Positions 3,455 to 60,792 of a DNA stretch of 64,000 nucleotides are shown in pieces (the stretch's first letter is position 1; each line of letters begins with the position of its first letter). The stretch comes from a virus (lineage: Duplodnaviria; Caudoviricetes). The stretch is taken from positions 1,428 through 65,427 of IMG/VR virus record IMGVR_UViG_3300033064_001044. One strand, 5' to 3'. Below the pieces are notes generated by a model, which was not told where the DNA came from, did not search any database, and saw nothing but the letters and a program-made list of their open reading frames with translations. The position numbers were made by a program, and so were the translations under genes.

Positions 3455-3504
3455 GCACTTATTCGGGATAGAAAAAAACAATCCGCTACTACGAAAGGTA
3501 ACAA

Positions 3505-5514
3505 ATGACTAGCGTTATGCCCAATGTATTACACGAACAAACTTCTATAGAAACTGAATTAGCAAACAGAAAGCGTGACCGCTTACAACGATTAGCACAG
3601 GTGTTTAGTCGTGCTAACTCTGTTCTTACTTCACGACCAATCGCTGTTCATGTTGTAAGTGAGCCACACAAGAACGCACCTGCTTGGTCTAGTGCTAGTG
3701 ATGTGTGGTTCAACTTAGACAAAGTGCGTGATGAGTTTGACGCACAATCTTTGTTATCACTACAGGGTTTGAACTTCCATGAGTTATCTCATGTTCGTTA
3801 CACACCACGCAACGGCTCGGAGATTTGTCGTTGGGTTATTGAGAACGATAAGTGGCAAGCGTTCAATGCGTTAGAGGACATGAGAATTGAGGGCTTGTTA
3901 GTTTCTCGCTTCCCTTCAATCGCTAACTGGCTTACCGCAACTGTTCTTGATTACTTAGTAAGAGAACCCGAAGGACTAGGAACTTTGTTCGCACTTGTTC
4001 GTGGTCGTAGATACTTACCTGTTGAGTTACGCAAAATCGCAAGAGAAAACTATTTGCGACAAGAGGACATAGATGAGTTGTGTGATGTTGTAGATAGTTA
4101 CCGCACTTTGTTATTCCCTGAGGATACAGAAGTTGCTAAAGAACTTATTGCTCGTTACCACGACTTGTTACAGAACTTACCAATCATTGAACAACCAACT
4201 GGAAGTGGAACTGGTAAAGGTGATGATGAGGGAACTGTAATTGTTCAAGTGCGTATTCACGACCCTCATGGTCACGCAACACGACCAACACAAGGTGTTG
4301 AGTCAAGCAACTCACGACCTGCTTCTAAAGAGGAACAGCGTCAAGACAGAGATAATCTAAAGAAGCAAGACAAACAAGATGAAGCAGAAGTATCTAATAA
4401 AAAACCTGATGTTGTTATAGATGTTCATGTTGATAACACACCACAGGACACAACAGATACAACTTCTAATCAACCTTCTAAAGAGAAGTCTGATACACCT
4501 GATGTTGCTGATAACTTTGATGATGTTGATGTTGATGTTGATGATTATGACTTTGATGATTACAACGACACACAACCAACACCACCAAAAGATAATGGCA
4601 ACTCATGGGGAACTGGTAGTGAAGGTGACGACAACAAGCCTGACGCTATCAACGAACAGATAACTGATTTGCTTGATGAAATTGTTGATGAACTTTCTAA
4701 AGAACTTGACCGACTATCTATTCAGGTCAATGGTTCTCCATTGTTAGAAGGCAACAAAACAAAAACACCACAGCAAATTGACTACACACCAAAACCTGTT
4801 CCACAAGATTTGTTCTTAGTTTCTAAAGCGTTTGCTAGAGAACTAGAACGCTTGCGAGCAAAGCATGACCCTGCTTGGGATAAGTTTGTTGATAGTGGTC
4901 GCTTCAATGTAAATCGTTATCTCAATGGTGGTGAGTTTGATACTTTGTTTGATGAGTGGTCAAGTGGTCGTGATGATGTAACTTCTATAGAAGCCGTAAT
5001 CTGTTTAGATTATTCAGGTTCTATGGAAGGCGATAACGCGACTTCTGCTTACCAATCTATGTGGGCAATCAAGAAGGCACTAGAACAAGTCAATGCTCGC
5101 ACAACAGTTGTGTTGTTTGACGATAGAAGTCCAAGACTTCTTTATGGTGCTGACGACAAAGCAGGAACAGTAATTCGTGACGCTGGAACTGCTTATGGAA
5201 CTGACCCTACTGACGCACTTCTTTATTCTCAAAATGTATTAGCAACAACTGAACAGCCAATCCGTTTGTTATTTATGATTACTGACGGGATTTGGCAAAG
5301 CAAAGTTGCGGAGGAAAGTGTTAGAGAGATGAAGCGAGCAGGTGTTGTAACCTGCCAAGCACTTATCGCTAACTACGAATTACCTAAAGAGTATCTAAAC
5401 GAGAACCGACATGAGTTTGAGTTAGTGTCTCATGTTCGTAGTGCTAAAGATGTTCTCGCTTTAGGTAAGGACTTAGTGCGACTATCTATCGCACGACAGT
5501 TAGTTACTCACTAA
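3505..5514 (+). CDS. CobT-like VWA protein: N-terminal HExxH domain, acidic linker, C-terminal VWA/MIDAS
   Basis: FHELSH and NALEDMRIE; D/T/P-rich linker; CLDYSGSM MIDAS, GT and ITDG motifs. Confidence 0.88.
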   Translation: MTSVMPNVLHEQTSIETELANRKRDRLQRLAQVFSRANSVLTSRPIAVHVVSEPHKNAPAWSSASDVWFNLDKVRDEFDAQSLLSLQGLNFHELSHVRYTPRNGSEICRWVIENDKWQAFNALEDMRIEGLLVSRFPSIANWLTATVLDYLVREPEGLGTLFALVRGRRYLPVELRKIARENYLRQEDIDELCDVVDSYRTLLFPEDTEVAKELIARYHDLLQNLPIIEQPTGSGTGKGDDEGTVIVQVRIHDPHGHATRPTQGVESSNSRPASKEEQRQDRDNLKKQDKQDEAEVSNKKPDVVIDVHVDNTPQDTTDTTSNQPSKEKSDTPDVADNFDDVDVDVDDYDFDDYNDTQPTPPKDNGNSWGTGSEGDDNKPDAINEQITDLLDEIVDELSKELDRLSIQVNGSPLLEGNKTKTPQQIDYTPKPVPQDLFLVSKAFARELERLRAKHDPAWDKFVDSGRFNVNRYLNGGEFDTLFDEWSSGRDDVTSIEAVICLDYSGSMEGDNATSAYQSMWAIKKALEQVNARTTVVLFDDRSPRLLYGADDKAGTVIRDAGTAYGTDPTDALLYSQNVLATTEQPIRLLFMITDGIWQSKVAEESVREMKRAGVVTCQALIANYELPKEYLNENRHEFELVSHVRSAKDVLALGKDLVRLSIARQLVTH

Positions 5515-10475: not shown

Positions 10476-11093
10476 ATGCCAAATCATTGTATAAGCACAC
10501 TAACAATTACTGGTAACTCAAAACAACTACACAAACTTCTAAAGCAAGTTGAAATAACAAAATCGGAAGCAACTCCAAGCCATGATGAACGAGAGTTCTC
10601 ATGCCACAAGATTATTCCGCGACCTGCTAAAGAAGATGATAATTGGTATAACTGGAACTCGGAGAACTGGGGAAGCAAGTGGGATTTAGCAGACTTTGAG
10701 TGGATAACTAACGATTGGGAAAACGGATTTGTTCATGCTTCTTTTTGGACAGCGTGGAGTCCTATTCCCCTTGTGTTAGAGAAGTTATCTAAACAACATA
10801 AGTCTTTAGAAATGACTTACCGCTTCCATGATGAAGGGGCTGGTTTCTACGGCACTTACTCTTTCAAGGGTGGAGTGCTAACAGTTGATGAGGAAGGTGA
10901 GTCCTTCACCTGTGATGTTAGAACTCGCTACTGGGGATACTCGGAACACCATTACTGTAAAGAGTGTGAAAATCACTTTGAGTGTCCTGATGAAAACTAC
11001 GAAGGCTCTATTGAGGAAATCTGTGAGGATTGTAAGACTTCTTTAGAAGCAACAGAGAAAGACTTATGGGAGGAGAAAGAAAGTGTTGCGTGA
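10476..11093 (+). CDS. DUF1281/YubB ferredoxin-like protein with C-terminal Cys cluster and ExxLW tag
   Basis: MPNHC start, WYNWNSENWGSKWD, FWTAWSP; ends LEATEKDLWEEKESVA. Confidence 0.8.
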   Translation: MPNHCISTLTITGNSKQLHKLLKQVEITKSEATPSHDEREFSCHKIIPRPAKEDDNWYNWNSENWGSKWDLADFEWITNDWENGFVHASFWTAWSPIPLVLEKLSKQHKSLEMTYRFHDEGAGFYGTYSFKGGVLTVDEEGESFTCDVRTRYWGYSEHHYCKECENHFECPDENYEGSIEEICEDCKTSLEATEKDLWEEKESVA

Positions 11094-13057: not shown

Positions 13058-13082
13058 ATAGGGGTTGAGGAGAGGAACTCAA

Positions 13083-14408
13083 ATGGCGTATGTAGTTACC
13101 CGAAATAAACGGCATACAGGCTATTACCGCAGAAGCGGTAAGGTTCAGAGTGCTGGAACTTATGGCACTAGAGCCAAAGCCTTGAACTCTGCCCTGCTCG
13201 CAGAGGAAGGCATAGTCTCAACTAACCCCGAACTAATTACAACCCTTGAAGCCTATGTAAAAGATTGGCTCATCAACCGAACAGATGTTCGGGTAATAAC
13301 AAAGAAAACTTATGCCATAACTCTAAAGAAGTATGCCCTACCTTCTTTGGGTCATAGACAAGTAACAGGCATAACTCGTAAAGATGTTAGGCAACTTATA
13401 GAGAAGTTGCTCTCCGAAGGTATAAGTCCTGCCACAGTTTCCCATGTAAAAACAGCGTTGGGTTCTGTGTTCAGGCAACTCGTTGAGGAAGAACAAATCC
13501 CCGCAAACCCTACGCATGGCATAAAGATAAAGACTTCTAAAGCAGACCCCACAAGTTCTTTAGAGCCTTCAGATTTCAAAAAAATTGTTGAGTCCCTGGA
13601 AACTGAAGGGGCAAAGATGTTTGCTCAATTCTTAGTTGCTTCAGGCTGCCGATTTGGAGAAGCCACAGAACTAAGAGTAAAAGACTTCAACTTCAAGTCA
13701 AAAGAAGTTTATGTTCGTAGAACTGTGAGTGATGTAGGCAAAGCCTTGAACAATGGAAGCCGTTTCCTTATCGTGCCTTCAACAAAGAACGGGCATAAAC
13801 GCACAGTAATCATCAACAAAAGCCTCAATGAAGCCCTAAAGAAGTATGTTCGGGATAGAAAATTAGGGGCTAATGATTTGCTGTTTTCCAAAGCCTTAGT
13901 GATAGAGTTTGGTAAAATAGTGACCACAGGTAGTCAATTGGAAAGGACTAAGAAGCCCTATACCGTTGGAAGTAGACTATTCCAACACGCAACTCCGTAC
14001 TCGTACAATGTCGGTGGGTGTAGGTGTGACCTGTGTAAACAAGCGGTCAGTAAGTATCGCAAACAATACAGAGAGGACAAATCAAAAGGTAGAGAAAGCC
14101 TAAGCCAAAGCCTTAGTCAAAGCCAAAGCCTTGACCAAAGCCTTGACCAAAGCCACCTCAGTCGTGACAAGTGGAGAACCACTTGGAACAAAGCCATAGA
14201 AAAGTCAGGTATTGGTTGGTATCCAAGAACGCATGACCTAAGACATGCCAACGCTACTCAACTCCTAAAGAGTGGGGTAGATGTGCATGAGGTCAAAGAG
14301 CGTTTGGGTCATCAGTCAATCACAACGACAGAGCGGTATCTACACCGTCTCCGTCACCAAAGTTCAAATGCTGCGGAAGCAGTAAATGATTACTTTGGGG
14401 AAAGGTGA
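13083..14408 (+). CDS. tyrosine recombinase/integrase with inserted Cys/His module
   Basis: GCRFGE (Arg), STKNG (Lys), HDLRH, LGHQS, TERY (Tyr); N-terminal SAM-like core-binding domain. Confidence 0.9.
   Translation: MAYVVTRNKRHTGYYRRSGKVQSAGTYGTRAKALNSALLAEEGIVSTNPELITTLEAYVKDWLINRTDVRVITKKTYAITLKKYALPSLGHRQVTGITRKDVRQLIEKLLSEGISPATVSHVKTALGSVFRQLVEEEQIPANPTHGIKIKTSKADPTSSLEPSDFKKIVESLETEGAKMFAQFLVASGCRFGEATELRVKDFNFKSKEVYVRRTVSDVGKALNNGSRFLIVPSTKNGHKRTVIINKSLNEALKKYVRDRKLGANDLLFSKALVIEFGKIVTTGSQLERTKKPYTVGSRLFQHATPYSYNVGGCRCDLCKQAVSKYRKQYREDKSKGRESLSQSLSQSQSLDQSLDQSHLSRDKWRTTWNKAIEKSGIGWYPRTHDLRHANATQLLKSGVDVHEVKERLGHQSITTTERYLHRLRHQSSNAAEAVNDYFGER
14095..14155 (+). repeat. coding tandem repeat of AAAGCC/CAAAGCCTTGAC units (SLSQSLSQSQSLDQSLDQS)
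   Basis: Direct repeats visible in both DNA and protein. Confidence 0.8.
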
Positions 14409-21004: not shown

Positions 21005-21333
21005 TAGTCTTCGATTACCTCAGCATCGGCTGCAAACTCAATCGTTTGCTCACCAGCATTGAATTCAACTCCACGAGCCTTCAGAGCCTCGGAAACCTTG
21101 TCACTTACTGTTTGCTCACGTTGGTTAAGAACGTTGAGAACGCCACCAATTACTCGGTCTGCAAGTAGTTGTGCTTCAATGTCTGAAGAAATTTCACGAC
21201 ACACCTTGTAGATGTCAAAAGTGTTTGGAACCTTATTTGGCTCAAAACCATCTTCAGGCATGTCCTTGTGAGTTTGAATTGTTCCATCTTCTTGAACTTC
21301 AATAATGAAGTAGAAGTCAGTTTTATTAGTCAT
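21004..21333 (-). CDS. hypothetical protein
   Basis: 109 aa, coupled ORF. Confidence 0.75.
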   Translation of the reverse strand: MTNKTDFYFIIEVQEDGTIQTHKDMPEDGFEPNKVPNTFDIYKVCREISSDIEAQLLADRVIGGVLNVLNQREQTVSDKVSEALKARGVEFNAGEQTIEFAADAEVIED

Positions 21334-21890
21334 TAGTCGTATAGTCCCATCAGTTGTCGTTTACGTTGTACTACCTTACTATGGATTGGACAGAAGTGGC
21401 ACAGGTAGTTTTTTGGACCTGTATCCCCTATTTTATCCATACCCAATTCTTTTCTTTCTTTTGCTGTGTCTGGTAACAGTCTCTTACGTTCGGATTGGTA
21501 CTCATCACAATTGTCTTGAGGCTTGTTCTTTTGTTTCCAACAAGACATAGCGTCTTCACCAAATTGGCTCTTAGTATCGTAAAAAGTATCATCAATTTCA
21601 GCAAGACCTTTAGACCCTCCGCCTTTAATTTGACGGATAACGTCTTTACGGGCATCGGTGTTCATCCATACTTTTAAGGGAACAATAAAAAGAAGACCTT
21701 TGTGTTCTTCTCCTGAAGGAAACCTATGTTTTTCACAAGCAATCTGGAGTAAGTGGTCTTCTTCTGGTTTGCCATTAAATGGCGGAAGTTCTTCTATAGA
21801 AGAACAGACTTTACAATTCAATAATCGTAGAACAGGACCTAAGTTTTGGTCCTCTGGTTTACGAGTACCTAATAGAGGTACATCTCCCAT
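21333..21890 (-). CDS. hypothetical Zn-binding protein
   Basis: CKVC and YLCHFCP; AAGGAG RBS. Confidence 0.8.
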   Translation of the reverse strand: MGDVPLLGTRKPEDQNLGPVLRLLNCKVCSSIEELPPFNGKPEEDHLLQIACEKHRFPSGEEHKGLLFIVPLKVWMNTDARKDVIRQIKGGGSKGLAEIDDTFYDTKSQFGEDAMSCWKQKNKPQDNCDEYQSERKRLLPDTAKERKELGMDKIGDTGPKNYLCHFCPIHSKVVQRKRQLMGLYD

Positions 21891-29737: not shown

Positions 29738-30560
29738 TTATGTCTCCAAACTGTTGGCATTGTTTACATCCTAATGCACCGTTGTTGCTGCACTCAAGGG
29801 GAGTACTTGCTTTAACTGCGTCTACAACAATTTGAGCCTTATTAAATATTGGCTCTACAAACTCGTAATCAGCCTTTATAGTGAATTCCCTATAATCCTG
29901 GTCAGCCTTGAGTTCATAAAGAAACACTATTTCTTTAGGAGCGTCTTTGCCAAAGATACGATTTGCCAATTCTAAGTACATTTGACCTTGCAGTAAATGA
30001 CTTCTAAACGGACGGCGAATACTTCTCCAGGCTTTAGTTAAATCACCATCAGCCTTAGCAAGTAGTTCAGGGGCTTCAAAACGTAGGGTTCCTGCACCAA
30101 TTGATTTAATCTCAATTAGGCAGTCATCACCGATACCTTTAATCCAGCCATCAGCGTGACCAGCAATCATTAGTTCTGGAAGGACTAATGGAACTTCTCT
30201 GTACTCAACGCTTTTGTGTACGTCTTTAGAAACAGCCCAAGAAGCAGCGACAGTTGAGTCACTCCACATACCGTATAGAACACCCATTTCTTTAAACCAG
30301 TTTTGCCATTTAGCATGGATTGTGTGCCCTTCGTCAAATATAGATTGTAAACGTAAGTTAGGTTTTTCTTTCTTTACCTCTGCACCCATAAGTGCAAAGT
30401 AAGAGGCTCTTAGACACCAGTCAGCCTTAATCATTTCCGAAGGGTGTAAAACGTTTGTTGAACGCTTTTCTAATGGTCTAGCCATTAAATGCCGTTCAAG
30501 GTCTCCGATAAGACGAGGGTTACTCTTCTTAGCATCTAAGAACTTCTTTAACTCAGTCAT
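29730..30560 (-). CDS. Cas4-like PD-(D/E)XK exonuclease
   Basis: HPS...C, GHADG, IEIKS, QGQMY, C-terminal C...CKQC. Confidence 0.85.
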   Translation of the reverse strand: MTELKKFLDAKKSNPRLIGDLERHLMARPLEKRSTNVLHPSEMIKADWCLRASYFALMGAEVKKEKPNLRLQSIFDEGHTIHAKWQNWFKEMGVLYGMWSDSTVAASWAVSKDVHKSVEYREVPLVLPELMIAGHADGWIKGIGDDCLIEIKSIGAGTLRFEAPELLAKADGDLTKAWRSIRRPFRSHLLQGQMYLELANRIFGKDAPKEIVFLYELKADQDYREFTIKADYEFVEPIFNKAQIVVDAVKASTPLECSNNGALGCKQCQQFGDISA

Positions 30561-30877
30561 TCCGTATCCAATCGTAGGATGAACTCTTTTAGAGTCATCT
30601 TCTTTTTATAAGACTTTTTCCACTTACGAATTTGAGCGTTGCGTTCACGATGTGAAAGCCCACCCCAAATTCCATGTGGTTCATCTCTTTCTACAGCATC
30701 CCACAGACATTTCTGTCTTACTGGACACGGGTTTTTGCCATTTTCACCAAAGCAAAAGGTCTTAGCCCTATCTGCAATGATTGTATATAGTTCTTTATCA
30801 CGCGGTGGATAAAAAGTGTCGGTGTCCTCTCCTTTACACCTAGCCTTATATCGCCATGCGTACGACGGTTCATCCAT
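30557..30877 (-). CDS. whiB: WhiB-family Fe-S transcription factor
   Basis: Four Cys and GIWGGLSHRER. Confidence 0.92.
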   Translation of the reverse strand: MDEPSYAWRYKARCKGEDTDTFYPPRDKELYTIIADRAKTFCFGENGKNPCPVRQKCLWDAVERDEPHGIWGGLSHRERNAQIRKWKKSYKKKMTLKEFILRLDTE

Positions 30878-44483: not shown

Positions 44484-46700
44484 TCAACTAAAGGTAGCGG
44501 AGGTTCCTTCTAAGCCTTTATAAGACCTAACACGCCATGGAGAATTCATAGGAACCCAGTATTTTAGGGTGTTTAGAAGTCTTGCCATTTTAATAGTCCA
44601 GTTGTCATAGCGATATGAGTATGAAGCATGGGCTGTTCCAGACCAGAAAACGCCAGAAGCCTGTGGCAATGAGCCGTCAAAATAATCGGTAGGTTTAAAA
44701 GCCTGTTCGAACTGAGCATTATCAACATAAACGTTAACCCCAGAACCTACAGTTCCAGATAAAGTAAAAGTAACTGTTATGTTGTTGGCGACTGATAACC
44801 CTTCAGGAACATACACTTGAACAAATTGTCTTGCCCAAGAAGTAGTTACTGAAACAGTTTTAGTTCCACTTTCTAAAGAAGTGGAGTCGTCATCATCTGC
44901 CACAATAGTCATGGTTAAAGTAGAGGCGGTGGATGCTTTCATATATAGAGAAAAAACATACCAATTGCCTTGAGTTAATTTAAAAACAGTTGGCAATGTA
45001 TTGCATATAGTTGAAAGACTTAGGCTTGTTTGTCCAGATAGCCTTAAAGAATATGAACCAGGCAAACCTTCAGGAACGGTGGAATTGTCTCTCGTAGTTG
45101 AAGAGTTTGTTGTCCAACCCGTAGCGTTTGTTTCAAACGAAGGGTTTCTTAAAATATTAACGAATCGTGGGGTTACAAACAAATCTACCGCTCTTGCTTC
45201 ATCAAACGTTGTTGCCGTAGCAGTTGGTGAAAATTGAATCATGTCTAGGTTATAAGAGTTTTGTGTTGTAAATACAACCCGAATACCTGCGTACACCGCA
45301 GTAGCGGGTGAAGTAACTGTTTGAGATTGTCTTTGATAAACACCTGTAGTTCCAAGGCTTGTTCCTTCAACTGAGGTGCTAATTTGCACTCCAAGGTAGT
45401 CGTACCAATAAACATAGGCTATTAAATTTCCGTTAGAATCTGAAGCAGCATGATAAGCAAATTGATAAGACGTGCTTGGTTGTACTGGTATTCCATTTAT
45501 AACAGGGTTATTTCTTCCTAAACTCATAGTAGAGGTTTTAGAAACAGAGCCAGTGGCTGCTGTTGATGCTTGATTTACGTCTGTGTTAGCGTAAGTAAAT
45601 GTAGTGGTTGAAGGGACAGATGCGACAGTAAAATTGCCGTTATATGTAGAATCAACTCCTGTAATAGCAATAGCGTCACCAATATCTAATCCATGAGCAG
45701 TGTTGAGTGTCAGTGTTGCTACGTTGTTTGTTCTTGTTTTAAACGTAACTGTTGAGGTTGAAGTTACAAAACGACCAGAGTAATTCCTGTCTACAGCGTT
45801 AGTTCCAGTAGGTCCTACCTTGTTACTTACTGAGGTTAATGTTCCATGTGTCTTTGTCCAACGCCCAATAGATTTATAGAAAGAAGAGTCTTGCACATCT
45901 AGCATTAAATTGGGAGAGATAGTTAAAGTTGGTGACCAAGTTGTTAAAGACTCGGCGTATCCCTTAATACCTAACTCAGTTCCCTTACCTTTATAAAGGT
46001 AGGATGCTTCTCTTATTAACTTTTTTCTGTTTTTAAAAGGTAGTCCGTTTTCTGGTTCCATACCTAATTGATTTGCGAATAAATTTATTAACTGTGGAGG
46101 AGTTGTTTTCTTTCCATACGATGGTGCTAACAACTCAGAATAGGTCAATAGTTGGTCATAAGTAAAAGAGAACGGTTGAAGAAAGTTGTACAAATCACTA
46201 TAAGGGTCTGAAATACCTGTGGGACTTTGTTCTGAACTTGTATAAACTTTTGGCAGTAGGTCAAACAAGGTCTTTTGAGTTCCCTTGTTTTTAGGCATTA
46301 AGCAATAAGAACGTCCTGAAAGAACCCAAATATTTGCAGAAGTAAACAACCAAATGGCATAATAAATAAACTGCCCAGCAGCAATAGGAACATTGTTTTC
46401 AGTACTACTGTCAAGAAAGTTATCCACACCGTCTGTAAAAGTGTTTCGACTAACACTTCCAGACAAGTTTGTAGTTGAAGCCTGTTCATAAAGAACTACT
46501 CCATCTTGTTCGGACTCAGGAAAATTATCGTTGTTTCTAACTAACCTAAATTTATAAAAGGTTCCTTGTGGAGGAGTCCATTGAACGGATACCTGACCAT
46601 AGTCCAACGCAACGGCAGACATAGGTTCTGCTGAGAGAACCAACCGTGGAGTTTGACCGTAATACGCTCCACGGTAAATAGCACCTGTGTACTTTGCCAC
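44484..46700 (-). CDS. baseplate wedge/tail protein (P2 gpI-like core with carbohydrate-binding-like domains)
   Basis: LFDLLP...YKGKGTELGI; NPSFE and YFDGS CBM-like motifs. Confidence 0.75.
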   Translation of the reverse strand: MAKYTGAIYRGAYYGQTPRLVLSAEPMSAVALDYGQVSVQWTPPQGTFYKFRLVRNNDNFPESEQDGVVLYEQASTTNLSGSVSRNTFTDGVDNFLDSSTENNVPIAAGQFIYYAIWLFTSANIWVLSGRSYCLMPKNKGTQKTLFDLLPKVYTSSEQSPTGISDPYSDLYNFLQPFSFTYDQLLTYSELLAPSYGKKTTPPQLINLFANQLGMEPENGLPFKNRKKLIREASYLYKGKGTELGIKGYAESLTTWSPTLTISPNLMLDVQDSSFYKSIGRWTKTHGTLTSVSNKVGPTGTNAVDRNYSGRFVTSTSTVTFKTRTNNVATLTLNTAHGLDIGDAIAITGVDSTYNGNFTVASVPSTTTFTYANTDVNQASTAATGSVSKTSTMSLGRNNPVINGIPVQPSTSYQFAYHAASDSNGNLIAYVYWYDYLGVQISTSVEGTSLGTTGVYQRQSQTVTSPATAVYAGIRVVFTTQNSYNLDMIQFSPTATATTFDEARAVDLFVTPRFVNILRNPSFETNATGWTTNSSTTRDNSTVPEGLPGSYSLRLSGQTSLSLSTICNTLPTVFKLTQGNWYVFSLYMKASTASTLTMTIVADDDDSTSLESGTKTVSVTTSWARQFVQVYVPEGLSVANNITVTFTLSGTVGSGVNVYVDNAQFEQAFKPTDYFDGSLPQASGVFWSGTAHASYSYRYDNWTIKMARLLNTLKYWVPMNSPWRVRSYKGLEGTSATFS

Positions 46701-46710
46701 TTAAAAGTAC

Positions 46711-47157
46711 CTACGCAGTCATTTGAACGGCGATGTAGTTTAACTTTAGAGGGTAGTTGTTTCCTACTTGTCCATCTGTAATTGGTGTATCCATTTCAAC
46801 TTCGTATGTAAACGCAGAAGTTGAAATTGTCTTTACTGTTCCAAACCCGTTTTTAACAGTTGTTGGGTAGGTAACTGAAACAAAGACAGTAGGGATTTGA
46901 TTAAAACGACCCCCGTCAAAAGTTTTTGTTCCAATTATTAATGAGTCTCCACCAGTAGTTGTGGCTAAATTTACTGTGCCAACTTCAATAGCGTAAGGGA
47001 CCTGTGCAGGTCTAATTATCTGACCATTAAAGGTTGCCCCACTAGTAAATGTGTTTGCAGCATTGAGACGTGCATAGTTGGTTAAATCAGGAAAGGCAAT
47101 AGCAAGGGCTTCCCATTCCGTACCGCTCCATACTCGGACTTCTCTGTAATTAGGCAT
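46711..47157 (-). CDS. tail fibre-associated protein (H-type lectin-like C-terminus)
   Basis: VWSGTEW, NTFT repeat, FNQIPTVFVS...LNYIAV. Confidence 0.6.
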   Translation of the reverse strand: MPNYREVRVWSGTEWEALAIAFPDLTNYARLNAANTFTSGATFNGQIIRPAQVPYAIEVGTVNLATTTGGDSLIIGTKTFDGGRFNQIPTVFVSVTYPTTVKNGFGTVKTISTSAFTYEVEMDTPITDGQVGNNYPLKLNYIAVQMTA

Positions 47158-47159
47158 GG

Positions 47160-47396
47160 TTACTCGCTAACTGGGGGTGTGAGATTTGTGCCGTCCCATT
47201 TCCAACCAAGTTGTGGGTTGTTTTCAGCACCACGGGTAAACTCAACAACGGTTGGGTTACTGGTAAATACGGCAGCGTGTCGGTCGTCTGTCCCCATAAT
47301 AACAACAACTTCTCCGTCTAGTATAAACGCTAAGTGTTTTGTCATATTAGAGGGTTGTTCACGTAAAACTTTTTTAGTTACTTCTGGTTCACTCAT
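47160..47396 (-). CDS. small fibre-associated protein
   Basis: AFILDGEVV...GWKWDGTNLTPP. Confidence 0.65.
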   Translation of the reverse strand: MSEPEVTKKVLREQPSNMTKHLAFILDGEVVVIMGTDDRHAAVFTSNPTVVEFTRGAENNPQLGWKWDGTNLTPPVSE

Positions 47397-47670
47397 TTGA
47401 TTCTCCTTCGGTAGATACTGTAACAGGTCCCCACTTACCTATGGGGCATGAAGCGTGAGGCAATTCAGCCTTTTTAGTCATAAAGCAACCACATTTCTTA
47501 CAAGTTTTTGTGGCTTGAATTAAAAATGGGCAGTTAAGACAGTGATTAGTATACCGATATTCAAAGGTTTCTTCGTCTACTCTTCCTATTTTAGGGTTGA
47601 GTAAATCCCAAGGACGAACTGAATCTCCTGCTTGTTTTTCTTTCCAAATATCCCAAGGTCTTTTTTCCAT
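47389..47670 (-). CDS. Cys-rich DUF6171-like protein
   Basis: CLNCPFL...CKKCGCFM..K..LPHASCPIGKW. Confidence 0.7.
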   Translation of the reverse strand: MEKRPWDIWKEKQAGDSVRPWDLLNPKIGRVDEETFEYRYTNHCLNCPFLIQATKTCKKCGCFMTKKAELPHASCPIGKWGPVTVSTEGESNE

Positions 47671-47671
47671 A

Positions 47672-48889
47672 TTATTGTCCTAACGGTTTAACAAATAGTG
47701 AGCCTATTGTACGTCCATCTTCAAAGTTACTTGGACGGGCTACAACTCCGTAACCAGTTCCAGTTTCAAAGAAGGAGGTGGTTGAATAGGTCCCAATTTG
47801 ATTGGTGTAAATGCTATCAGTAAAGGCCCTAACAGTTAAAGAGTTGCTGCTTGCAGAAACCTTTACCGCAGACCATCTTTCTGGAACAGAAACATCTGCT
47901 ACAACAGAAAACACTCCATTTACCATCTTTACAACCTGTAGATAGTAGTAGTTGGTATATGTCGTGCCTGTGGCTGTTTGGTCACATATAGTTTCAGAAC
48001 CTGCTTGGCAACAATCATAATACGGAACATTATCGAACCCGTCTGGAGAACACTCGTGCGAATAGCCTATTTTTGCATAAACTTCTCCACCAGGACAGTC
48101 TTCGTAGTAAGTTTCTTGTAATTCATACACATCGTCGTCACAGACCGTTTCAGATGTGGCTGGGTCACAGATTCGTGTCATACCTGGATTACAAACTTGT
48201 CTTATTCCAGAGGTTGTCCATTGGTAAGAACAGTTTTGGCGGTATTCGTTGTAGCACTCACCTGGAACGACTACTGTTGTACACGCACCTTCAGAAATTA
48301 AAACCCATTCATCGTAATACACAAGTTCATATCCACCAGGACATGTCCAGTCGTAAATATCTTCAAAAATGGAAACATTTGGGGGATTACAGACTAGGTT
48401 GTATCCAGCAGGTTCAGTACAAGCAGCAATACAATAACTTTCTTGATGAGAGGCTACGCAGTAAGAATAAGTTTGAGCCGTTTGATTATAGTAAGGAACA
48501 ACACCCCACCAGTTATTTGCATCCGTTACACGGATAGCAACACCTGTTCCTGGAGTTAACTCGTTGGCTTGAAGGTCAAAGTCTAAAAAACCAGCATCAA
48601 TAGAGGCTAATGGATAATCTGTTTTTGCTCCCGTTGTATTAGCGTTGTTAGAGTTAATACGCCATTGACTTCTTAGGATAGTCCACGCTTGACCAGACTC
48701 GGCAACTCCAAGAGTGTTAGTTGTGTCTGTTCTGTTAAATGTATCTTCTAACTTATCTGCCCAAAATTGTTGCCACTGACCGTTAACTTTTATGTAGCCA
48801 AATTTAGCCTTCTTCCAACCGCCATTTACTTTTGCAAATAGCCCAGAAGCAGACTTAAAGTTGCCAGATACCTTAGAACCGATAGCCAT
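47672..48889 (-). CDS. tail-associated beta-sandwich protein with a 16-Cys insert
   Basis: KVNGGW repeats and DTFNR motif typical of tail proteins; Cys-rich central segment. Confidence 0.7.
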   Translation of the reverse strand: MAIGSKVSGNFKSASGLFAKVNGGWKKAKFGYIKVNGQWQQFWADKLEDTFNRTDTTNTLGVAESGQAWTILRSQWRINSNNANTTGAKTDYPLASIDAGFLDFDLQANELTPGTGVAIRVTDANNWWGVVPYYNQTAQTYSYCVASHQESYCIAACTEPAGYNLVCNPPNVSIFEDIYDWTCPGGYELVYYDEWVLISEGACTTVVVPGECYNEYRQNCSYQWTTSGIRQVCNPGMTRICDPATSETVCDDDVYELQETYYEDCPGGEVYAKIGYSHECSPDGFDNVPYYDCCQAGSETICDQTATGTTYTNYYYLQVVKMVNGVFSVVADVSVPERWSAVKVSASSNSLTVRAFTDSIYTNQIGTYSTTSFFETGTGYGVVARPSNFEDGRTIGSLFVKPLGQ

Positions 48890-48900
48890 TAAAGGTCGTC

Positions 48901-49578
48901 CTAAGCCGTGTACTTAATCCAGATGTCTCCGTTATTACCACCAGTTGGGTCAGCAGTAGAGACCGTGATATTACGAAGTCGTGAGGTAAGTGCTTGGTCT
49001 CCTGTAAGAGTTCCGCCAGTAATTTGTAGTGTCGTGTCAGCAGTAAGAACAGCAGGTGCTGAATCTGAGTCAACCCAAATTGTTCCTGTTGGAAGTCCTA
49101 AAGCAGCAGCATCAGGTTGAGTTGATTGCATCAAGATAGGTTTAATTTCTTGGCTATTTACAAATAACTTTCCAGCAGAATCTACTTTAGTAAGAACAGT
49201 TCCAGAGGAATTTTTAAACCGAAGAAGGTCCGCAGTTTGACCTGAAAATCCTTGAAGGTTTAGAGCAATAACAGTTGAGTTGGAAGACTGGATTGTTTCT
49301 CCACCAGTGAACTTTAAATATTGGGTGTGTACATCAGCGTTAATACCGTATTCAAGATTTTGAACACGGGCTGCCAAAGTAGACCAAGTGGTAGTTCCTG
49401 TTATAAAAGTACCTACACCTGAGCCGTATCCAGCGGAAACGTGAGGCGACACTCCAACATAAGTTTCAACTGCTTGAACTTCGTCTTGCAGACTGTTAAT
49501 GTGTTCTGCAACTACTACCTGAGTAAAGTCAACCTTTGGGTCAAAGGGCTTTACGCTACTGGGATATACGGCTGGCAT
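48901..49578 (-). CDS. tail fibre-like protein
   Basis: AEHINSLQDEV, HTQY, GTIWVD, GDIWIK. Confidence 0.7.
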   Translation of the reverse strand: MPAVYPSSVKPFDPKVDFTQVVVAEHINSLQDEVQAVETYVGVSPHVSAGYGSGVGTFITGTTTWSTLAARVQNLEYGINADVHTQYLKFTGGETIQSSNSTVIALNLQGFSGQTADLLRFKNSSGTVLTKVDSAGKLFVNSQEIKPILMQSTQPDAAALGLPTGTIWVDSDSAPAVLTADTTLQITGGTLTGDQALTSRLRNITVSTADPTGGNNGDIWIKYTA

Positions 49579-49637: not shown

Positions 49638-50111
49638 CTATGCGTGACTATGGCTGGTACTTGCTTTTGTTGCCATTTGTCCCTCTAAAGTAGTCACTCT
49701 TGTCTCTAAACTTTTAATTTTGGCTGCCATAACTAAGAGGGTTGCTACAAGGTCTACCTCTGTTGTGCCGTTTTTTGTACGTTCGGTAATGATGTGAGTA
49801 TTTTCTATTCCCGATAAAGACGTTGTATCTTTCAAAACTTTAATGTTTACTCTTTTGTCTTGTTTAGGCTTGCCAAAAGTTCCAGTCCAAATTGGGTATG
49901 AAGAGTCCCCACCCTCAAACATAACCCAAACACCTTCACCAATGTCAGGCACTTGTACTTTAGCAAAGCCGTTTTCTTGAGGCCAAGCCCAATCAGAAAC
50001 AAAGTCGCCAGTTAATTGAGGAACCTTAAGGGTTACTCGACGATGACCTTGTGGGTCGTTATTATCAACAACCAAGCCTCTGTAAACTCCGTAATATAAA
50101 TCTTGACTCAT
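49638..50111 (-). CDS. baseplate central spike (gp5/gpV OB-fold)
   Basis: YRGLVVDNNDP...VPDIGEGVWVMFEGGD.SYPIW; C-terminal HSH. Confidence 0.88.
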   Translation of the reverse strand: MSQDLYYGVYRGLVVDNNDPQGHRRVTLKVPQLTGDFVSDWAWPQENGFAKVQVPDIGEGVWVMFEGGDSSYPIWTGTFGKPKQDKRVNIKVLKDTTSLSGIENTHIITERTKNGTTEVDLVATLLVMAAKIKSLETRVTTLEGQMATKASTSHSHA

Positions 50112-51658
50112 AATGCCTCTAGGATAAGTGAGCCTTCAGCAAAGGAGAGGATTTCATTAGAAAGCGCAGATATTTCTGTAAGGCTTGGGCTTCCTCCAGT
50201 TTTATATAAAAACTGTACTTTACCTTTTGTAATTCCAGGAACTGTTTGCAATACATATTCAAGGTCTTGTGCAGTAATTACTGACCCAAAATCTTGATAA
50301 AAATACGAGAAGTTATTAATGATGTAGGTCTTAACATTAGACTCGGCCTCTGCGGTTGTATATGAAGGGTCTAATTTGTATTGAACGTTTAAGGTTACTG
50401 CAACATACGTTGGAATTGTATAAGTTACAGTTGTTCCCGCTAATAATTTATCTGCTAAATACGCTTTAACTGAGTCTCTTAAAGCAGTCCATTCAATTGT
50501 TGCACCATAAGGAGAGTCTGTCTCAAGACCAGGAGTTGCATCTGCATCTCCGCTGTCTCGTCTTGGAGCAAGATAAACAGTAACGGAGGTATACCCCGTT
50601 GATACCGCTTTTGCTTTTCCGCAGTTGTCCACAGATAAAGCCAAGTTTTCAAAGTCTTCCAAAGTTACTGCTCTGTTTTGTGCTCGTAAGAACAAAGGAG
50701 CATTTGCACGAATTGAAGAACTGCTCTCTGGGTCTTGACCACCAACGCCTGTTACGGCGTTAGTTACGGAAAGGTTTCCACTTAAAGCAGCAGTTTGATT
50801 AGAAGTAAGTCCTGGAACATAAGATATTGAATCTATAAGTGCGATTGATATGTTACCGATAGTTCCGCCACCAACTGTGTACTTTGCACGGACAATTGCT
50901 TGTAGAGTTGGGATAGCACCAGATATTCCATCGCCAAAAACGATAGAAACAACATTGTCTTTATCAAGAACTACAGAATATACAGAATCAGCGGGACCAA
51001 AATCTAATAGATGTTTTACTTGCGTCCACTTTTTATAATCACTACCGCTTTGTACAAAAACTTCTACGCTGTCTGAAACAATTGGGTCGTCAAAAATAGT
51101 AAAGCGTTGTTCCGAAGAACCGTCAGAAGTGCCGATAATGGCACCATAAACTGAGGAAGACTCCACTGTATTAACAGCACCTTCATAAGCAGCAACGGTT
51201 GCTTGTCCAGCAACACCACTTGCAAATGCGGGTACGCTGACTGCTACGTATGTTGTGAAGGTTACGTTTTTTACGGAAGTCCCATCTGTGACATCTGCAG
51301 TGACTCTTACACCAGCAGGTAGTTCAACAGCAGAAGTCGATGTGTTAGTAAAAGTCAAAGTTACATTAGCATTTGAATATCCTGTTGGTGTATAGCCATA
51401 GATTTCTGCCAAAGCCAGGATAGAACTTCTTTGAGTTGCTGTCGCTAAAAATCCTTCGTTAGCAATTCTGTCAATGTAGTAACTTGCCATATCTCCCATA
51501 TAAGCAAATGCTTCAACTAATGCAAGACCAAAATCTGAACTGTCTGCACCATTCCACTCAGGAACAACTCTTTTAACACGAGCAATCAACTCTTGTTTTA
51601 ACGCATAGTAGTCGCGACTTGTATAATCGACCGATGGTGGGGTTTCATTTATAGCCAT
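50108..51658 (-). CDS. baseplate wedge protein (gp6/gpJ-like)
   Basis: DYTSRDY, FGDGISGAIP, GGQDPES, RAVTLEDF. Confidence 0.9.
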   Translation of the reverse strand: MAINETPPSVDYTSRDYYALKQELIARVKRVVPEWNGADSSDFGLALVEAFAYMGDMASYYIDRIANEGFLATATQRSSILALAEIYGYTPTGYSNANVTLTFTNTSTSAVELPAGVRVTADVTDGTSVKNVTFTTYVAVSVPAFASGVAGQATVAAYEGAVNTVESSSVYGAIIGTSDGSSEQRFTIFDDPIVSDSVEVFVQSGSDYKKWTQVKHLLDFGPADSVYSVVLDKDNVVSIVFGDGISGAIPTLQAIVRAKYTVGGGTIGNISIALIDSISYVPGLTSNQTAALSGNLSVTNAVTGVGGQDPESSSSIRANAPLFLRAQNRAVTLEDFENLALSVDNCGKAKAVSTGYTSVTVYLAPRRDSGDADATPGLETDSPYGATIEWTALRDSVKAYLADKLLAGTTVTYTIPTYVAVTLNVQYKLDPSYTTAEAESNVKTYIINNFSYFYQDFGSVITAQDLEYVLQTVPGITKGKVQFLYKTGGSPSLTEISALSNEILSFAEGSLILEAL

Positions 51659-52059
51659 TATAGGTTCTCCTGATAAATAGGTTGTTTTCTAGAGATAGCA
51701 GCAAGGGCTACCACGGTTGTTTGCTCTTCTTCAGTAGGTAGTTCATACGTTATAACTATGTCTAAAGAACCCGTAAATTCGTCTGCTACAACTTCTGTAG
51801 ACACCAAGTTTAACAAAGGCAAGAACTTTATAAACCCTTGTTCAACTTCTGTTTCTATAGAAGTCGTTAAATTGCTTGCATTTCCATAAACAAAGGTTGC
51901 AAGATAGGTGCCAAAATCTGGCTCCATAACTCTTTCTCCCTTTAGAGTACCCATAACAGACAGAACTCGGTCAGACCAAATTTCAGAATAGGTAGCAGAA
52001 GTACTTATTCTTCCGTAAGAGTCTAACTTAAACGGCAACGAAATTGCTTTTTCAGCCAT
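51658..52059 (-). CDS. baseplate gp25-like protein
   Basis: GERVMEPDFG. Confidence 0.88.
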   Translation of the reverse strand: MAEKAISLPFKLDSYGRISTSATYSEIWSDRVLSVMGTLKGERVMEPDFGTYLATFVYGNASNLTTSIETEVEQGFIKFLPLLNLVSTEVVADEFTGSLDIVITYELPTEEEQTTVVALAAISRKQPIYQENL

Positions 52060-52061
52060 AG

Positions 52062-53330
52062 TTATCCTACCCATCTTCTAGAGTTCAAAGTATATCCGCT
52101 TTGGGTTTCATTAAACATAGAAGTTGGTGACGATAATGTTGGAGTAGCCGATACTCCTAGTGAATCGCCATCTTCAAGGTCAATTAAATTTAATGCTGGG
52201 ATAAGGCCAAGACCAGAAACTCGTTGATTTGTAGACTCAGCGGGTCCACTTCCTTCGCACATTAAATAACCACTACAGATGTATGTACCCACTTTACTCA
52301 TCACATGAGTAGCAGACCTGACCAACCAAATACCGTCATTGATGTCGTCAATACCCTGTACATCTACCGCTCCATAAGGAGTTATACGAGGGTCTCCTTG
52401 ACCTGACCACCACGCTGTATTTGTTAATCGTGCATTTTCGGTAGCACCTTTTGCTATTATTTTAGCGTCACTTGCAGAGTTAACAACTTTCATAGTGCCC
52501 TGATGTTCAAACAACACCTGATTAAATTTAGTTCTCATAGTTTTTTTAGTTTGAGGGGTTTGGACAGAGCCGTAAGTTTTTCCAGTAACTGGGTCAACTC
52601 CAGTTACTTGTTGTGTTCGTCTTTGAACAACGCCTTCTCCTTCAATAAAGTCTCCAGAAGTTGGCTCAAAATAATCTAAAGTTCTTTCAATAGGTGCGTG
52701 AAATGGAGGAGCAAATTGATTTTCAAAGTAAAGAACTGGGGTTGTTCCAATAGATTTTGTTAACACATCGTCAATACTTTTAAAATAAATAGTTGTTCCC
52801 TTTACCCATAAGGCATAACCCAAGGAGGTTGCTAACGTAACTAGGTACTCCCAATACGATAACCCTTGTTGGTTTAACTGACTCCATTTAGTTGGGTGAC
52901 TAGTAACAATGGCTTTCATGTTACTCTTTTTTGCAATTTCTTGAACAACTTCAGGAATACTTTTTTTCTTCCATATATTTGAGGCTTGGTTTTTTAAAGG
53001 GAAAGACCCACCAATACACGTGATTTCAACATCACTATTTACTGGAGATTTTTTAGATTTTCTAACTGTTGAGACGTATCCAGTAAATACTCCTTTTGCG
53101 GGAGCAGAGTTCGTCCAATTTACCTGCACTGTTGTTCCAGTTTTAAACCCCTTAAAGAATAAAGGCGTTGAAACTTGAAACTTTAAAATTAAAATATCGT
53201 GAGTTCTAATTGCTTGATGCAACTCAATCTCGTAGGGTTTAGTTTTAAAAGTTGGAAAGTCAGGAAAAGTTACAGTATAACTAGTCCCATACCTTGCTTG
53301 ATACCCTGCTGGGATACTGCTAATCGCCAT
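52062..53330 (-). CDS. baseplate hub (gp27/gpD-like)
   Basis: QQGLSYWEYLVTLA, GQGDPRI, GIWLVRSATH. Confidence 0.8.
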   Translation of the reverse strand: MAISSIPAGYQARYGTSYTVTFPDFPTFKTKPYEIELHQAIRTHDILILKFQVSTPLFFKGFKTGTTVQVNWTNSAPAKGVFTGYVSTVRKSKKSPVNSDVEITCIGGSFPLKNQASNIWKKKSIPEVVQEIAKKSNMKAIVTSHPTKWSQLNQQGLSYWEYLVTLATSLGYALWVKGTTIYFKSIDDVLTKSIGTTPVLYFENQFAPPFHAPIERTLDYFEPTSGDFIEGEGVVQRRTQQVTGVDPVTGKTYGSVQTPQTKKTMRTKFNQVLFEHQGTMKVVNSASDAKIIAKGATENARLTNTAWWSGQGDPRITPYGAVDVQGIDDINDGIWLVRSATHVMSKVGTYICSGYLMCEGSGPAESTNQRVSGLGLIPALNLIDLEDGDSLGVSATPTLSSPTSMFNETQSGYTLNSRRWVG

Positions 53331-59265: not shown

Positions 59266-60792
59266 TTAGGAGTTAACGGTCTTCTGAGACAAAGCAATGA
59301 CAATAAATTCGGCTGGGTATTGCAGAGCAACACCAACTTCAATATTGACTTGACCTTGAGCAATCAGATTGTCTGGGTTGTTTTCTGCATCACATTTGAT
59401 GAAGAAGGCTTGGTCTGGGCTATTACCGCGTAGACCACCTTGGTTGTAGTACTCGTTTAAGAAGGTACCTAATCCAGCATTAATACGTTGCCACAACTTT
59501 TCATCGTTATTCTCAAACAATGCAAACTGTGTTAAGTCATTAAGTTGTTTACGAATGTAGATTAATGAACGACGCATATTTACATACCTATTTGCTGTAC
59601 CGTCATTCTTCAATGTACGAGCACCCATTACTGAGATACCTGCACCTGGAAGTTGACGAATAGCATTTACTGGAGCAGAGGCACCATTAAGGCTATCTAG
59701 TTCTGCAGATGTAAATGCTTTTTCTAGACTAATAGCACCTTGAACAGTTGTTCCAATACCTGCTGGAGCCTTGAATGGACCAAAAGTTGCATCAGTATTC
59801 ATGTAGATACCAGCCATAGCACCTGCGGGTCCAATTAAACGAATTGAACTTGCAGAACGTCCGACTGGGTCGGTGATGTAATAGTTTGGATAATATACTG
59901 CTGAATGACTTGAGCCAGCCAAAGTAGTAGCAACAGTAAGTGCTTGAGCAACTGTTCTACCTGAGACTGTATCAGCAACCACGAAGTGGATACCCTTACC
60001 TGTTGCCCAACTGATTAACTCAATAGTGTGAGTTGAAGCATTTGTAGCAGTAATAGCATCTGCAAGTGCTGGCAAAAACACAACCAATGGTCGGTCAATG
60101 TTATCAAAAGCAGCAATTGTTCCAGATGTTGCACTTTGGAAATCAGTAAGAGCAACAGCACTTCCGTTGCTTCCTGTTGCTAACGGATAAACCGCAAGAG
60201 CAGGGGCATTAGCGTTGTCTGCAACTGTTACTGTGATGTATGTAGACACTGCGTTAATAACAGTTGTCATGTAGTCGCTAGAGGTTGTTGAGTTTAGTAC
60301 AACGTTCTCATAAGACTCAAGAAGTACGTCGTTGGTTACATCGCTTGATGTTCCTGCAACTCCTTCTTTATAAACAAGAACGTCATAGTAACCAGTACCT
60401 AAAGTTCCTGCCTGAAGTTTTACTCGTAGGTTGTTTCCGTCAGTTCCAACTGCTTTTGCAGTAAAGGTTACAACGGTTCCTGCTGCTAGAGAAGCACGAC
60501 CAACTATGGCTGCTGCTGCTGTTGCATCTGTTGCAACAACACGCTTTACGTAGAGGTCACGTCCACCGTTCTTAAAGAAGGCTCCTACCTGAAATGTTGC
60601 TGGGTAAAGAGCGTTATAGCCACCAAAATTCTTTGTAAATTCATACCAAGAACTTACTAAGGTTGTTGTGGTTGGACCGCTGGCAAATGTGCCAGAGACT
60701 GCACCCGCTGCATTAGCCGAAGCCGTTACTGCAACTGGAGCAGGAAGTACGCGTTCACTGATGTAAACGCCAGGACGATTATAAGTCGCCAT
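59266..60792 (-). CDS. contractile tail sheath protein
   Basis: RPGVYISE, FFKNGG, KAPAG, GARTL, RYVNMRR, FENND, PAEFI. Confidence 0.95.
   Translation of the reverse strand: MATYNRPGVYISERVLPAPVAVTASANAAGAVSGTFASGPTTTTLVSSWYEFTKNFGGYNALYPATFQVGAFFKNGGRDLYVKRVVATDATAAAAIVGRASLAAGTVVTFTAKAVGTDGNNLRVKLQAGTLGTGYYDVLVYKEGVAGTSSDVTNDVLLESYENVVLNSTTSSDYMTTVINAVSTYITVTVADNANAPALAVYPLATGSNGSAVALTDFQSATSGTIAAFDNIDRPLVVFLPALADAITATNASTHTIELISWATGKGIHFVVADTVSGRTVAQALTVATTLAGSSHSAVYYPNYYITDPVGRSASSIRLIGPAGAMAGIYMNTDATFGPFKAPAGIGTTVQGAISLEKAFTSAELDSLNGASAPVNAIRQLPGAGISVMGARTLKNDGTANRYVNMRRSLIYIRKQLNDLTQFALFENNDEKLWQRINAGLGTFLNEYYNQGGLRGNSPDQAFFIKCDAENNPDNLIAQGQVNIEVGVALQYPAEFIVIALSQKTVNS

Follow-up and report, generated by a model that had tools for sequence, protein, structure and literature searches.

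An insert with mirror-spaced cysteines in a protein of the tail region

We analyzed 64,000 nucleotides of the virus record IMGVR_UViG_3300033064_001044 (Duplodnaviria; Caudoviricetes). This stretch, called the window here, runs from position 1,428 to position 65,427 and makes up nearly all of a 65,427-base record that is estimated to be 68% complete. The subject of the analysis was a minus-strand gene, referred to here as the hairpin gene, whose product contains a cysteine-rich insert. The gene and the parts of its product, as delimited with the help of a structure model, are as follows.

47672-48889, minus strand: hairpin gene, 405 residues; N-terminal anchor, then a predicted lectin-like sandwich split by a putative cysteine-laddered hairpin
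48758-48889, minus strand: residues 1-44, a small beta-meander (four short strands in the model) and probable attachment module, matching PHROG 36019 and 25859
48461-48757, minus strand: residues 45-143, N-terminal half of the predicted ConA-like lectin or carbohydrate-binding module (CBM) beta-sandwich; strand 126-143 continues into the hairpin
47984-48460, minus strand: residues 144-302, the 16-cysteine insert, with a modelled ascending limb at 144-225 and descending limb at 228-302
48194-48229, minus strand: residues 221-232, the modelled hairpin tip between C8 and C9, with its turn at 226-227
47675-47983, minus strand: residues 303-405, C-terminal half of the predicted lectin-like sandwich, with the hairpin returning through strand 303-323

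The 16 cysteines, numbered C1 to C16, are residues 144, 153, 157, 167, 183, 203, 212, 220, 233, 241, 250, 265, 280, 293, 294, and 302. All their codons fall within 47984-48460, and the remaining 246 residues of the protein contain no cysteine. Cysteine accounts for 0.8% of the residues in the open reading frames (ORFs) of at least 150 residues in the window, and the chance of finding at least 16 in 159 residues is about P = 3e-13. An initial annotation of this DNA had placed a 16-cysteine insert at 47960-48480, and the cysteine codons indeed lie inside that interval. The length it gave, about 170 residues, was somewhat too large, as 163 residues separate the flanks that it quoted (which end at residue 143 and start at residue 307).

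The gaps between successive cysteines, from C1 to C16, are 9, 4, 10, 16, 20, 9, 8, 13, 8, 9, 15, 15, 13, 1, and 8, and the mirror score of this 15-gap vector was matched by 0.16% of gap shuffles. The symmetric spacing described earlier around the centre was exact (C6-C7 9, C7-C8 8, tip 13, C9-C10 8, C10-C11 9), and C5 (residue 183) and C12 (residue 265) are each followed by PGG, as had been noted, giving CPGG at both sites. The insert has 2 His among its 159 residues and no CxxC.

An ORF of 154 residues antisense to the cysteine-rich insert (48073-48537, plus strand) is most likely spurious. Two further ORFs of the window have a raised cysteine content, one at 10476-11093 (plus strand, 8 Cys in 205 residues) and one at 21333-21890 (minus strand, 7 Cys in 185 residues).

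Joint change of cysteines across the insert

The most likely arrangement of the cysteines is eight nested rungs, C1-C16, C2-C15, C3-C14, C4-C13, C5-C12, C6-C11, C7-C10, and C8-C9, for which the sums of partner positions range from 446 to 453. We infer nested disulfides from three properties of the homologous sequences: the spacing is mirrored, the counts are even, and cysteines come and go in pairs.

The number of cysteines was even in all 64 homologues, with a range of 14 to 34, and 28 of them had a count, for example 14, 18, 22, 26, or 34, that is not divisible by four. In 63 of the 64, the spacing was more mirror-like than in gap shuffles (p < 0.05), with a nested-sum span of 6-21 residues; these p-values overstate independence because the homologues are related, although the number and the spacing of their cysteines nonetheless differ widely. 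Over 426 gap pairs from 45 distinct gap vectors, mirrored gaps were correlated with r = 0.83, compared with 0.40 when partners were slid by one.

It had been suggested in the initial annotation that insertions and deletions in homologues should remove cysteines in mirrored pairs, and the data agreed with this. Among the 23 closest homologues, gain or loss of a cysteine column struck both mirror partners together in four events out of four. The jointly changing columns were 193/259, 196/253, 212/241, and 224 with an inserted tip cysteine (228+), while the other variable columns represented shifts of 1-3 residues. The gaps at the base also co-varied in mirror, 5' gaps of 9,4,10 occurring with reversed 3' gaps of 8,1,13, those of 10,2,10 with 9,2,12, and those of 9,13 with 9,13. 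A test for equal numbers of cysteines on the two sides of a fixed column gave equality in 28 of the 64 homologues, including all 23 closest ones; this test was rejected as unreliable for divergent sequences, because MAFFT puts extra segments after the reference tip.

Structure model of the protein

An AlphaFold2 model was built on the 64-sequence family alignment. Its mean predicted local distance difference test (pLDDT) score was 88.3, with values of 79-93 across the insert, and its predicted TM-score (pTM) was 0.58. Residues 126-323 were modelled as a single hairpin with the turn at 226-227. DSSP assigned ascending strands at 126-166, 172-182, 188-199, 203-208, and 212-225 and descending strands at 228-241, 245-250, 254-264, 270-281, and 286-323, so that every strand break was mirrored about i+j = 453. 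In this register C203/C250, C212/C241, and C220/C233 lie opposite each other, Y191/Y262 and Y192/Y261 are also paired, and both faces carry a mixture of aromatic and charged residues. The antiparallel hairpin that had been proposed, with a structure model as its check, was what AlphaFold2 predicted: one long hairpin, not tandem local modules.

In the model the flanks of the hairpin, residues 45-143 and 303-405, form one beta-sandwich, in line with the earlier view that the insert lies within a beta-rich domain. This sandwich was compared with 48,161 chains by VIA-align, and the following matches are given with their VIA-align values.

4b1m_A: CBM66; 17.0, 2.3, 148
9n6a_A: TM4 gp23 receptor-binding domain; 15.1
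8zdo_a: Douge baseplate; 14.5
5ly8_A: phage J-1 Dit CBM2; 12.9
9vyh_q: Pan3 tailspike; 10.8

The two-sheet jelly-roll sandwich superposed on solved members of the CBM66-like, actinophage BppU-CBM, and TM4 gp23 receptor-binding domain groups, and the region matched in the Douge chain was the CBM of BppU. As modelled, residues 45-143 and 303-405 are a ConA-like lectin/CBM sandwich that resembles actinophage receptor-binding domains. The accessible part of the report on Douge (PMC13033339) describes BppU as a ring domain at the N-terminus joined to a CBM that binds M. smegmatis cells. From the fold and by analogy with this cell binding, the sandwich may bind carbohydrate of the host envelope.

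No Pfam family matched the hairpin protein at E <= 0.01, and PHROG matches (36019 and 25859) were confined to residues 1-44, which are the best-conserved part of the protein, with the lowest column entropy (0.70). ESM Atlas gave PF22237 (SO2946-like_C, score 0.87), which was taken as a lead only. Foldseek with the hairpin-protein model gave no match at E <= 1e-3; the best of the weak rows were pore forms of aerolysin, lysenin, and haemolysins, which combine a globular domain with a very long hairpin. The stem hairpin of a beta-pore-forming toxin was considered and rejected, as these rows had E >= 3e-3 and TM <= 0.12 and aromatic residues are interspersed with charged ones on both faces of the paired register. 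When three copies of residues 120-330 were modelled together, the score was 0.00 in a run made without controls, which carries no weight for or against a homo-oligomer.

Divergence of the insert and the wider family

The hairpin gene was the most divergent member of its conserved module. At the related locus L013 the neighbouring proteins were 72-94% identical to those of the window, but the hairpin protein was 46% identical and had 22 Cys in 447 residues; at locus L020 only residues 1-158 could still be aligned. For relative P0008, identity fell to 59% in the insert, compared with 93% in the anchor and 89% in each of the two lectin halves. Column entropy rose from 0.8 at the root of the hairpin to 2.7 at about residues 206-215 and returned symmetrically, with 1.89 and 1.88 in the two basal limbs, and the tip gap (C8-C9) varied from 4 to 34 residues across homologues.

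In close pairs, the ratio of nonsynonymous to synonymous divergence (dN/dS) was 0.28-0.37 in the insert versus 0.12-0.13 in the flanks, and dS itself was 0.68-0.80 versus 0.36-0.38. Positive selection was not detected by NG86, since omega in the insert was 0.17-0.37 and never exceeded 1. The raised dN/dS together with the raised dS points to recombination of older cassettes rather than to demonstrable positive selection. Contigs of relatives were also obtained from other runs. Two of them spanned the gene: differences amounted to 24% in the alignable piece of the insert versus 9-11% in the pieces on either side, and a further two stretches were too diverged to align. The contigs of run X7 had no cover over 48058-48736, which carries no evidential weight.

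A full HMMER scan found 515 cluster representatives (50% identity level) at E <= 1e-3, a lower bound for the number of clusters in the wider family. The sandwich halves were common to them, and the part inserted between the halves differed. Regular ladders occurred, such as that of P0123, with six gaps of 12, one of 18, and six more of 12, and that of P0133, with gaps of 9 around one of 22. Three long members, P0078, P0087, and P0094 (546-647 residues), had 34-46 Cys in tandem local modules (16,1,11; 7,5,5,1) that were not mirror-symmetric.

Genomic context and likely host

The genes around the hairpin gene were as follows.

49638-53330, minus strand: upstream baseplate genes, namely a hub gene, a gp25-like gene, Baseplate_J, and an OB-fold gpV-like gene (Pfam and PHROG baseplate families)
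48901-49578, minus strand: upstream neighbour, 225 residues, with a tail-fibre-like C-terminus (PHROG 14064 'tail fiber protein', E 3.5e-5)
47389-47670, minus strand: DUF6171-like protein of 93 residues with six Cys in the pattern CxxC...CxxCxC...C, starting 1 nt after the stop of the hairpin gene
44484-47157, minus strand: downstream partners, proteins of 148 and 738 residues, whose order is conserved in loci with enough flank

Read on the minus strand toward the hairpin gene, the order is hub, gp25-like, Baseplate_J, OB-fold gpV-like, and the 225-residue protein; beyond it the DUF6171-like, 148-residue, and 738-residue proteins follow in that order. PF04717, PF04865, and PF04965 were found in the upstream block, and PF05954 weakly. 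Across 24 related IMG/VR loci the order from the 225-residue gene to the 738-residue gene was kept wherever flank was present, and the 225-residue gene was always directly upstream of the hairpin gene. The 148- and 738-residue proteins had no Pfam or PHROG match, and the larger one is probably a fibre or adhesin. The conserved synteny with baseplate genes supports the earlier assignment of the hairpin protein to the tail; it is presumably a peripheral baseplate or fibre-module protein present in the virion. A tail sheath gene at 59266-60792 indicates a contractile-tailed phage. The OB-fold 'Phage_base_V' gene (49638-50111, minus strand) is placed between Baseplate_J and the fibre genes instead of beside the hub, an unusual arrangement for a spike protein.

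The 93-residue neighbour scored 26.0 bits against DUF6171 (PF19668; E 1.3e-5), slightly below the cut-off of 27, and matched PHROG 13558 at E 5.7e-12, and its six cysteines were invariant across 63 sequences. Most of the 103 loci had a DUF6171-like ORF downstream on the same strand, often 2-20 nt away and in quite different lineages; at L074-076 and L098 the DUF6171-like part formed the C-terminal end of a fusion with a protein of about 480 residues. A confident model of the 93-residue protein (pLDDT 85.8) matched no solved fold, and a literature search found no paper on DUF6171. It is possible, though unsupported, that this neighbour helps the hairpin protein. A role as dedicated oxidase or chaperone was set aside and kept as a weak idea, given that homologues in cultured Synechococcus (cyano-) and Stenotrophomonas phages are not beside ladder proteins and that those in phage Moby lie outside any tail module.

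The host is likely to be a low-GC freshwater actinobacterium, as judged from four observations. The record carries a WhiB gene (30635-30856, within 30557-30877, minus strand; 63.5 bits, over the Pfam cut-off), which points to an actinobacterial host; the nearest cultured relatives by sheath and family A DNA polymerase (PolA) are the Streptomyces myophages BRock, Alone3, and LuckySocke, at 32-36% identity; G+C is 40%; and every run with exact matches bore a viral or freshwater metagenome label. No RNA run was among the public runs with matches. Besides the family A DNA polymerase, the record carries a class II ribonucleotide reductase. A tblastn search of the hairpin protein and its relative P0123 against 50,697 phage records gave no match to cultured phages, and megablast of 10 kb around the hairpin gene gave none among phage records. 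A scan of 185,579 species genomes with the family alignment for prophages gave 92 pattern matches, none of them a relative, so the host cannot be read from prophages.

Elsewhere in the window, a tyrosine integrase gene is found at 13065-14408 (plus strand), and relatives of the phage reach about 100 kb. Genes for an AAA_5 (dynein-related/MoxR-like) ATPase and a VWA-domain protein adjoin at 2072-5514 (plus strand), at the left end of the record. No tRNAs were found within the window.

Proposed role of the hairpin protein and alternative explanations

On balance we consider it likely that the hairpin protein is an adhesin of the baseplate or fibre module, in which a lectin sandwich and a giant nested-disulfide hairpin serve host recognition by a phage of a low-GC freshwater actinobacterium. 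The N-terminal 44-residue beta-meander would attach the protein to the tail, and the sandwich, whose fold is that of actinophage domains, would bind cell-wall glycans as it does in those phages. Two neighbouring strands of the sandwich are modelled to extend out as an antiparallel ribbon of about 80 residues per limb, and eight putative nested disulfides, from C8-C9 at the tip to C1-C16 at the base, would staple the limbs rung by rung. The graded variability and the exchange of cassettes suggest that the hairpin is an element of host-surface recognition or reach that works with the lectin domain: the base is conserved, and the distal half, the fastest-evolving part of the whole module, appears to be swapped as a cassette between similar phages and may be presented to the host envelope, with the lectin domain bound to glycan.

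It is probable that the rungs close at a late stage of infection or, once the cell has lysed, in oxic water, because the host cytoplasm is reducing (mycothiol-type) and the record has no recognisable thiol oxidase. Searched with profiles of thioredoxin, glutaredoxin, and DsbA, the 65-kb record (68% complete) gave no match; the Erv/ALR profile gave none either, but it was silent in control genomes too and is uninformative. Oxidation would stiffen a floppy loop into a projection that resists proteases and shear, with a reach of about 20-25 nm as an upper bound if fully extended.

Several observations weigh against this interpretation. Of 146 further representatives of the wider family (50% level), 127 had even cysteine counts, in favour of pairing, but 19 had odd ones; among those of at least 250 residues with at least 4 Cys, 117 were even and 15 odd. 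Of the 114 distant representatives whose cysteines are even in number and at least 8, only 47 passed the mirror test, partly because the test is powerless on equal gaps and partly because some of them are not hairpins; some long relatives carry tandem local cysteine modules instead. In the hairpin protein itself, C5/C12 (C183/C265, sum 448) and C4/C13 (C167/C280, sum 447) deviate from the 453 register by 5-6 residues and could pair only with bulges at the CPGG/CPGG and CNPP/PDGF breaks; these breaks look like two-fold-related bulges, and the pairing is plausible. The relatives P0104, P0130, P0137, and P0119 are free of cysteine and have Tyr/Pro-rich heptad-like repeats around a similar central motif, which means that the hairpin does not strictly require disulfides and seems to be older than them. 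The disulfides and their oxidation state are deduced from a sequence pattern and a model, a lone ribbon with 80 residues per limb has no precedent among solved structures, and an oxidase could sit in the missing part of the record. Finally, dN/dS in the insert is well below 1, and its fast change may reflect relaxed constraint and recombination rather than selection for new specificities.

A bolder version of the adhesin interpretation, which is possible but which we hold to be doubtful, sees in the protein a new type of fibre, a monomeric two-stranded ribbon with disulfide rungs that would act as a redox-armed probe of adjustable reach and carry a determinant of host specificity. It would be lengthened or shortened through gain or loss of mirror-paired rung modules, with 0 to over 17 rungs in hundreds of lineages, its rigidity would be switched on by oxidation only after exit from the reducing host cell, and it would cross the envelope layers of freshwater actinobacteria. 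The six-cysteine DUF6171-like neighbour might then be a helper for folding or oxidation.

It is unlikely that the hairpin, though real and cross-linked, is a structural strut, a spacer, or a tie between subunits whose variability reflects relaxed constraint. Such a role would agree with dN/dS below 1 throughout, with the cysteine-free and very different insert types at the same site, and with phage Pam3, where, in the accessible part of PMC9942802, fibres are tethered to the wedge by disulfides and released by dithiothreitol (DTT). However, the variability is graded, with a basal minimum and a distal maximum; at L013 and L020 the whole cassette differs while the neighbours remain 72-94% identical, as is usual for host-range determinants; and the even counts together with the mirror pairing speak for bonds within a single chain.

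A compact domain, disulfide-knotted or locally paired (C1-C2, C3-C4, or crossed), from whose end-to-end contacts AlphaFold draws a hairpin, is quite unlikely. The drift of the basal and middle pair sums (446-450) makes the register inexact, the pTM is only 0.58, some units of the superfamily have Gly-Pro in each segment between cysteines that could be turns, and the long relatives clearly have local tandem modules. The joint gains and losses, by contrast, concern cysteines 29-66 residues apart with other cysteines between them, so that under sequential pairing every intermediate pair would have had to be re-registered, which counts against local pairing. The mirror correlation of the gaps, the mirroring of the DSSP boundaries over the full length, and the pLDDT of 79-93 also speak for the nested hairpin.

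Binding of Zn (which the initial annotation had named, with local modules, as what would speak against nested pairs) or of Fe-S by tandem cysteine clusters is very improbable: synthesis in a reducing cytoplasm and the metal-site-like pattern of the 93-residue neighbour would suit it, but the cysteine counts are even without being multiples of four in 28 of the 64 homologues, the cysteines are single, mostly 8-20 residues apart, and change in twos, not fours, and the absence of CxxC and the 2 His of the insert likewise argue against Zn sites.

Essentially nothing is known of the proteins with which phages of the dominant, mostly uncultured actinobacteria of fresh water recognise their hosts. 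If the ladder is true, the hairpin would serve as a natural scaffold able to evolve, with cysteine pairs that hold the fold while length and tip change, and would be of interest for the engineering of binders; it would also provide a marker, readable from sequence alone, of host-range cassettes in metagenomic phage genomes, and a case of oxidative folding outside the normal secretory route.

Comparison with known systems

A lectin-fold phage adhesin is already known; what is new here is the modelled giant hairpin with its putative ladder of disulfides, and the cysteine pattern from which it is deduced is a real feature. No published description of a lectin fold combined with a covalently laddered giant hairpin was found in papers or solved structures. 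Tentaclins combine a C-type lectin with a short hypervariable hairpin that has no ladder (PMC10743442). The hairpin protein shares the ConA-like lectin/CBM fold with Douge BppU (PDB 8ZDO), the C-terminal domain of TM4 gp23 (PDB 9N6A), and CBM66 (4B1M). It has no Pfam match and no tblastn match in 50,697 phage records, and those structures are without a 160-residue cysteine-laddered hairpin that arises from two sandwich strands.

Protegrin and tachyplesin are examples of cystine-ladder hairpins. Further examples are described in the accessible part of PMC6327110, namely theta-defensins, which are 18-residue cyclic peptides with three parallel disulfides, and Chlamydomonas HAP2, with a 37-residue cystine-ladder-like loop that has three disulfides. 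The modelled hairpin resembles them in having two antiparallel strands tied by putative parallel nested disulfides, and it resembles HAP2 in that the ladder is inserted in a loop of a larger beta-protein, which in HAP2 is extracellular. However, theta-defensins and HAP2 have 3 rungs in 18-37 residues, whereas the insert has 8 putative rungs in 159 residues, and up to 17 in close homologues. The rungs are 8-20 residues apart here versus 2-4 there, and there is no homology. The hairpin described here is not cyclic and is embedded in 405 residues of a phage tail protein made in the bacterial cytoplasm.

In the bovine ultralong CDR-H3, the disulfides lie in the knob, and the stalk has about 12 residues per strand. 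Like the hairpin protein, it has a hypervariable beta-ribbon stalk with a variable distal element on a conserved beta-sandwich and an even number of cysteines. In the hairpin protein, by contrast, the putative disulfides are the rungs of the stalk, and the tip loop has only 12 residues.

The tail-tube rings of siphoviruses are reportedly a case in which the virion makes use of disulfides (PMC13576161). Disulfide-rich proteins had been considered unusual for virions assembled in the cytoplasm, and they are indeed uncommon, but there are precedents: PMC9942802 describes, in its accessible part, DTT-sensitive disulfides that tether fibres to the wedge in cyanophage Pam3, and a disulfide network in the sheath and tube of Agrobacterium phage Milano is reported (PMC10811340). 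Together with the siphovirus rings, these cases agree with the present one in that functional disulfides are possible in tailed phages assembled in the cytoplasm. They differ from it in that the bonds there are few and mostly lock subunits to each other, whereas here eight putative intramolecular rungs would support one hypervariable projection.

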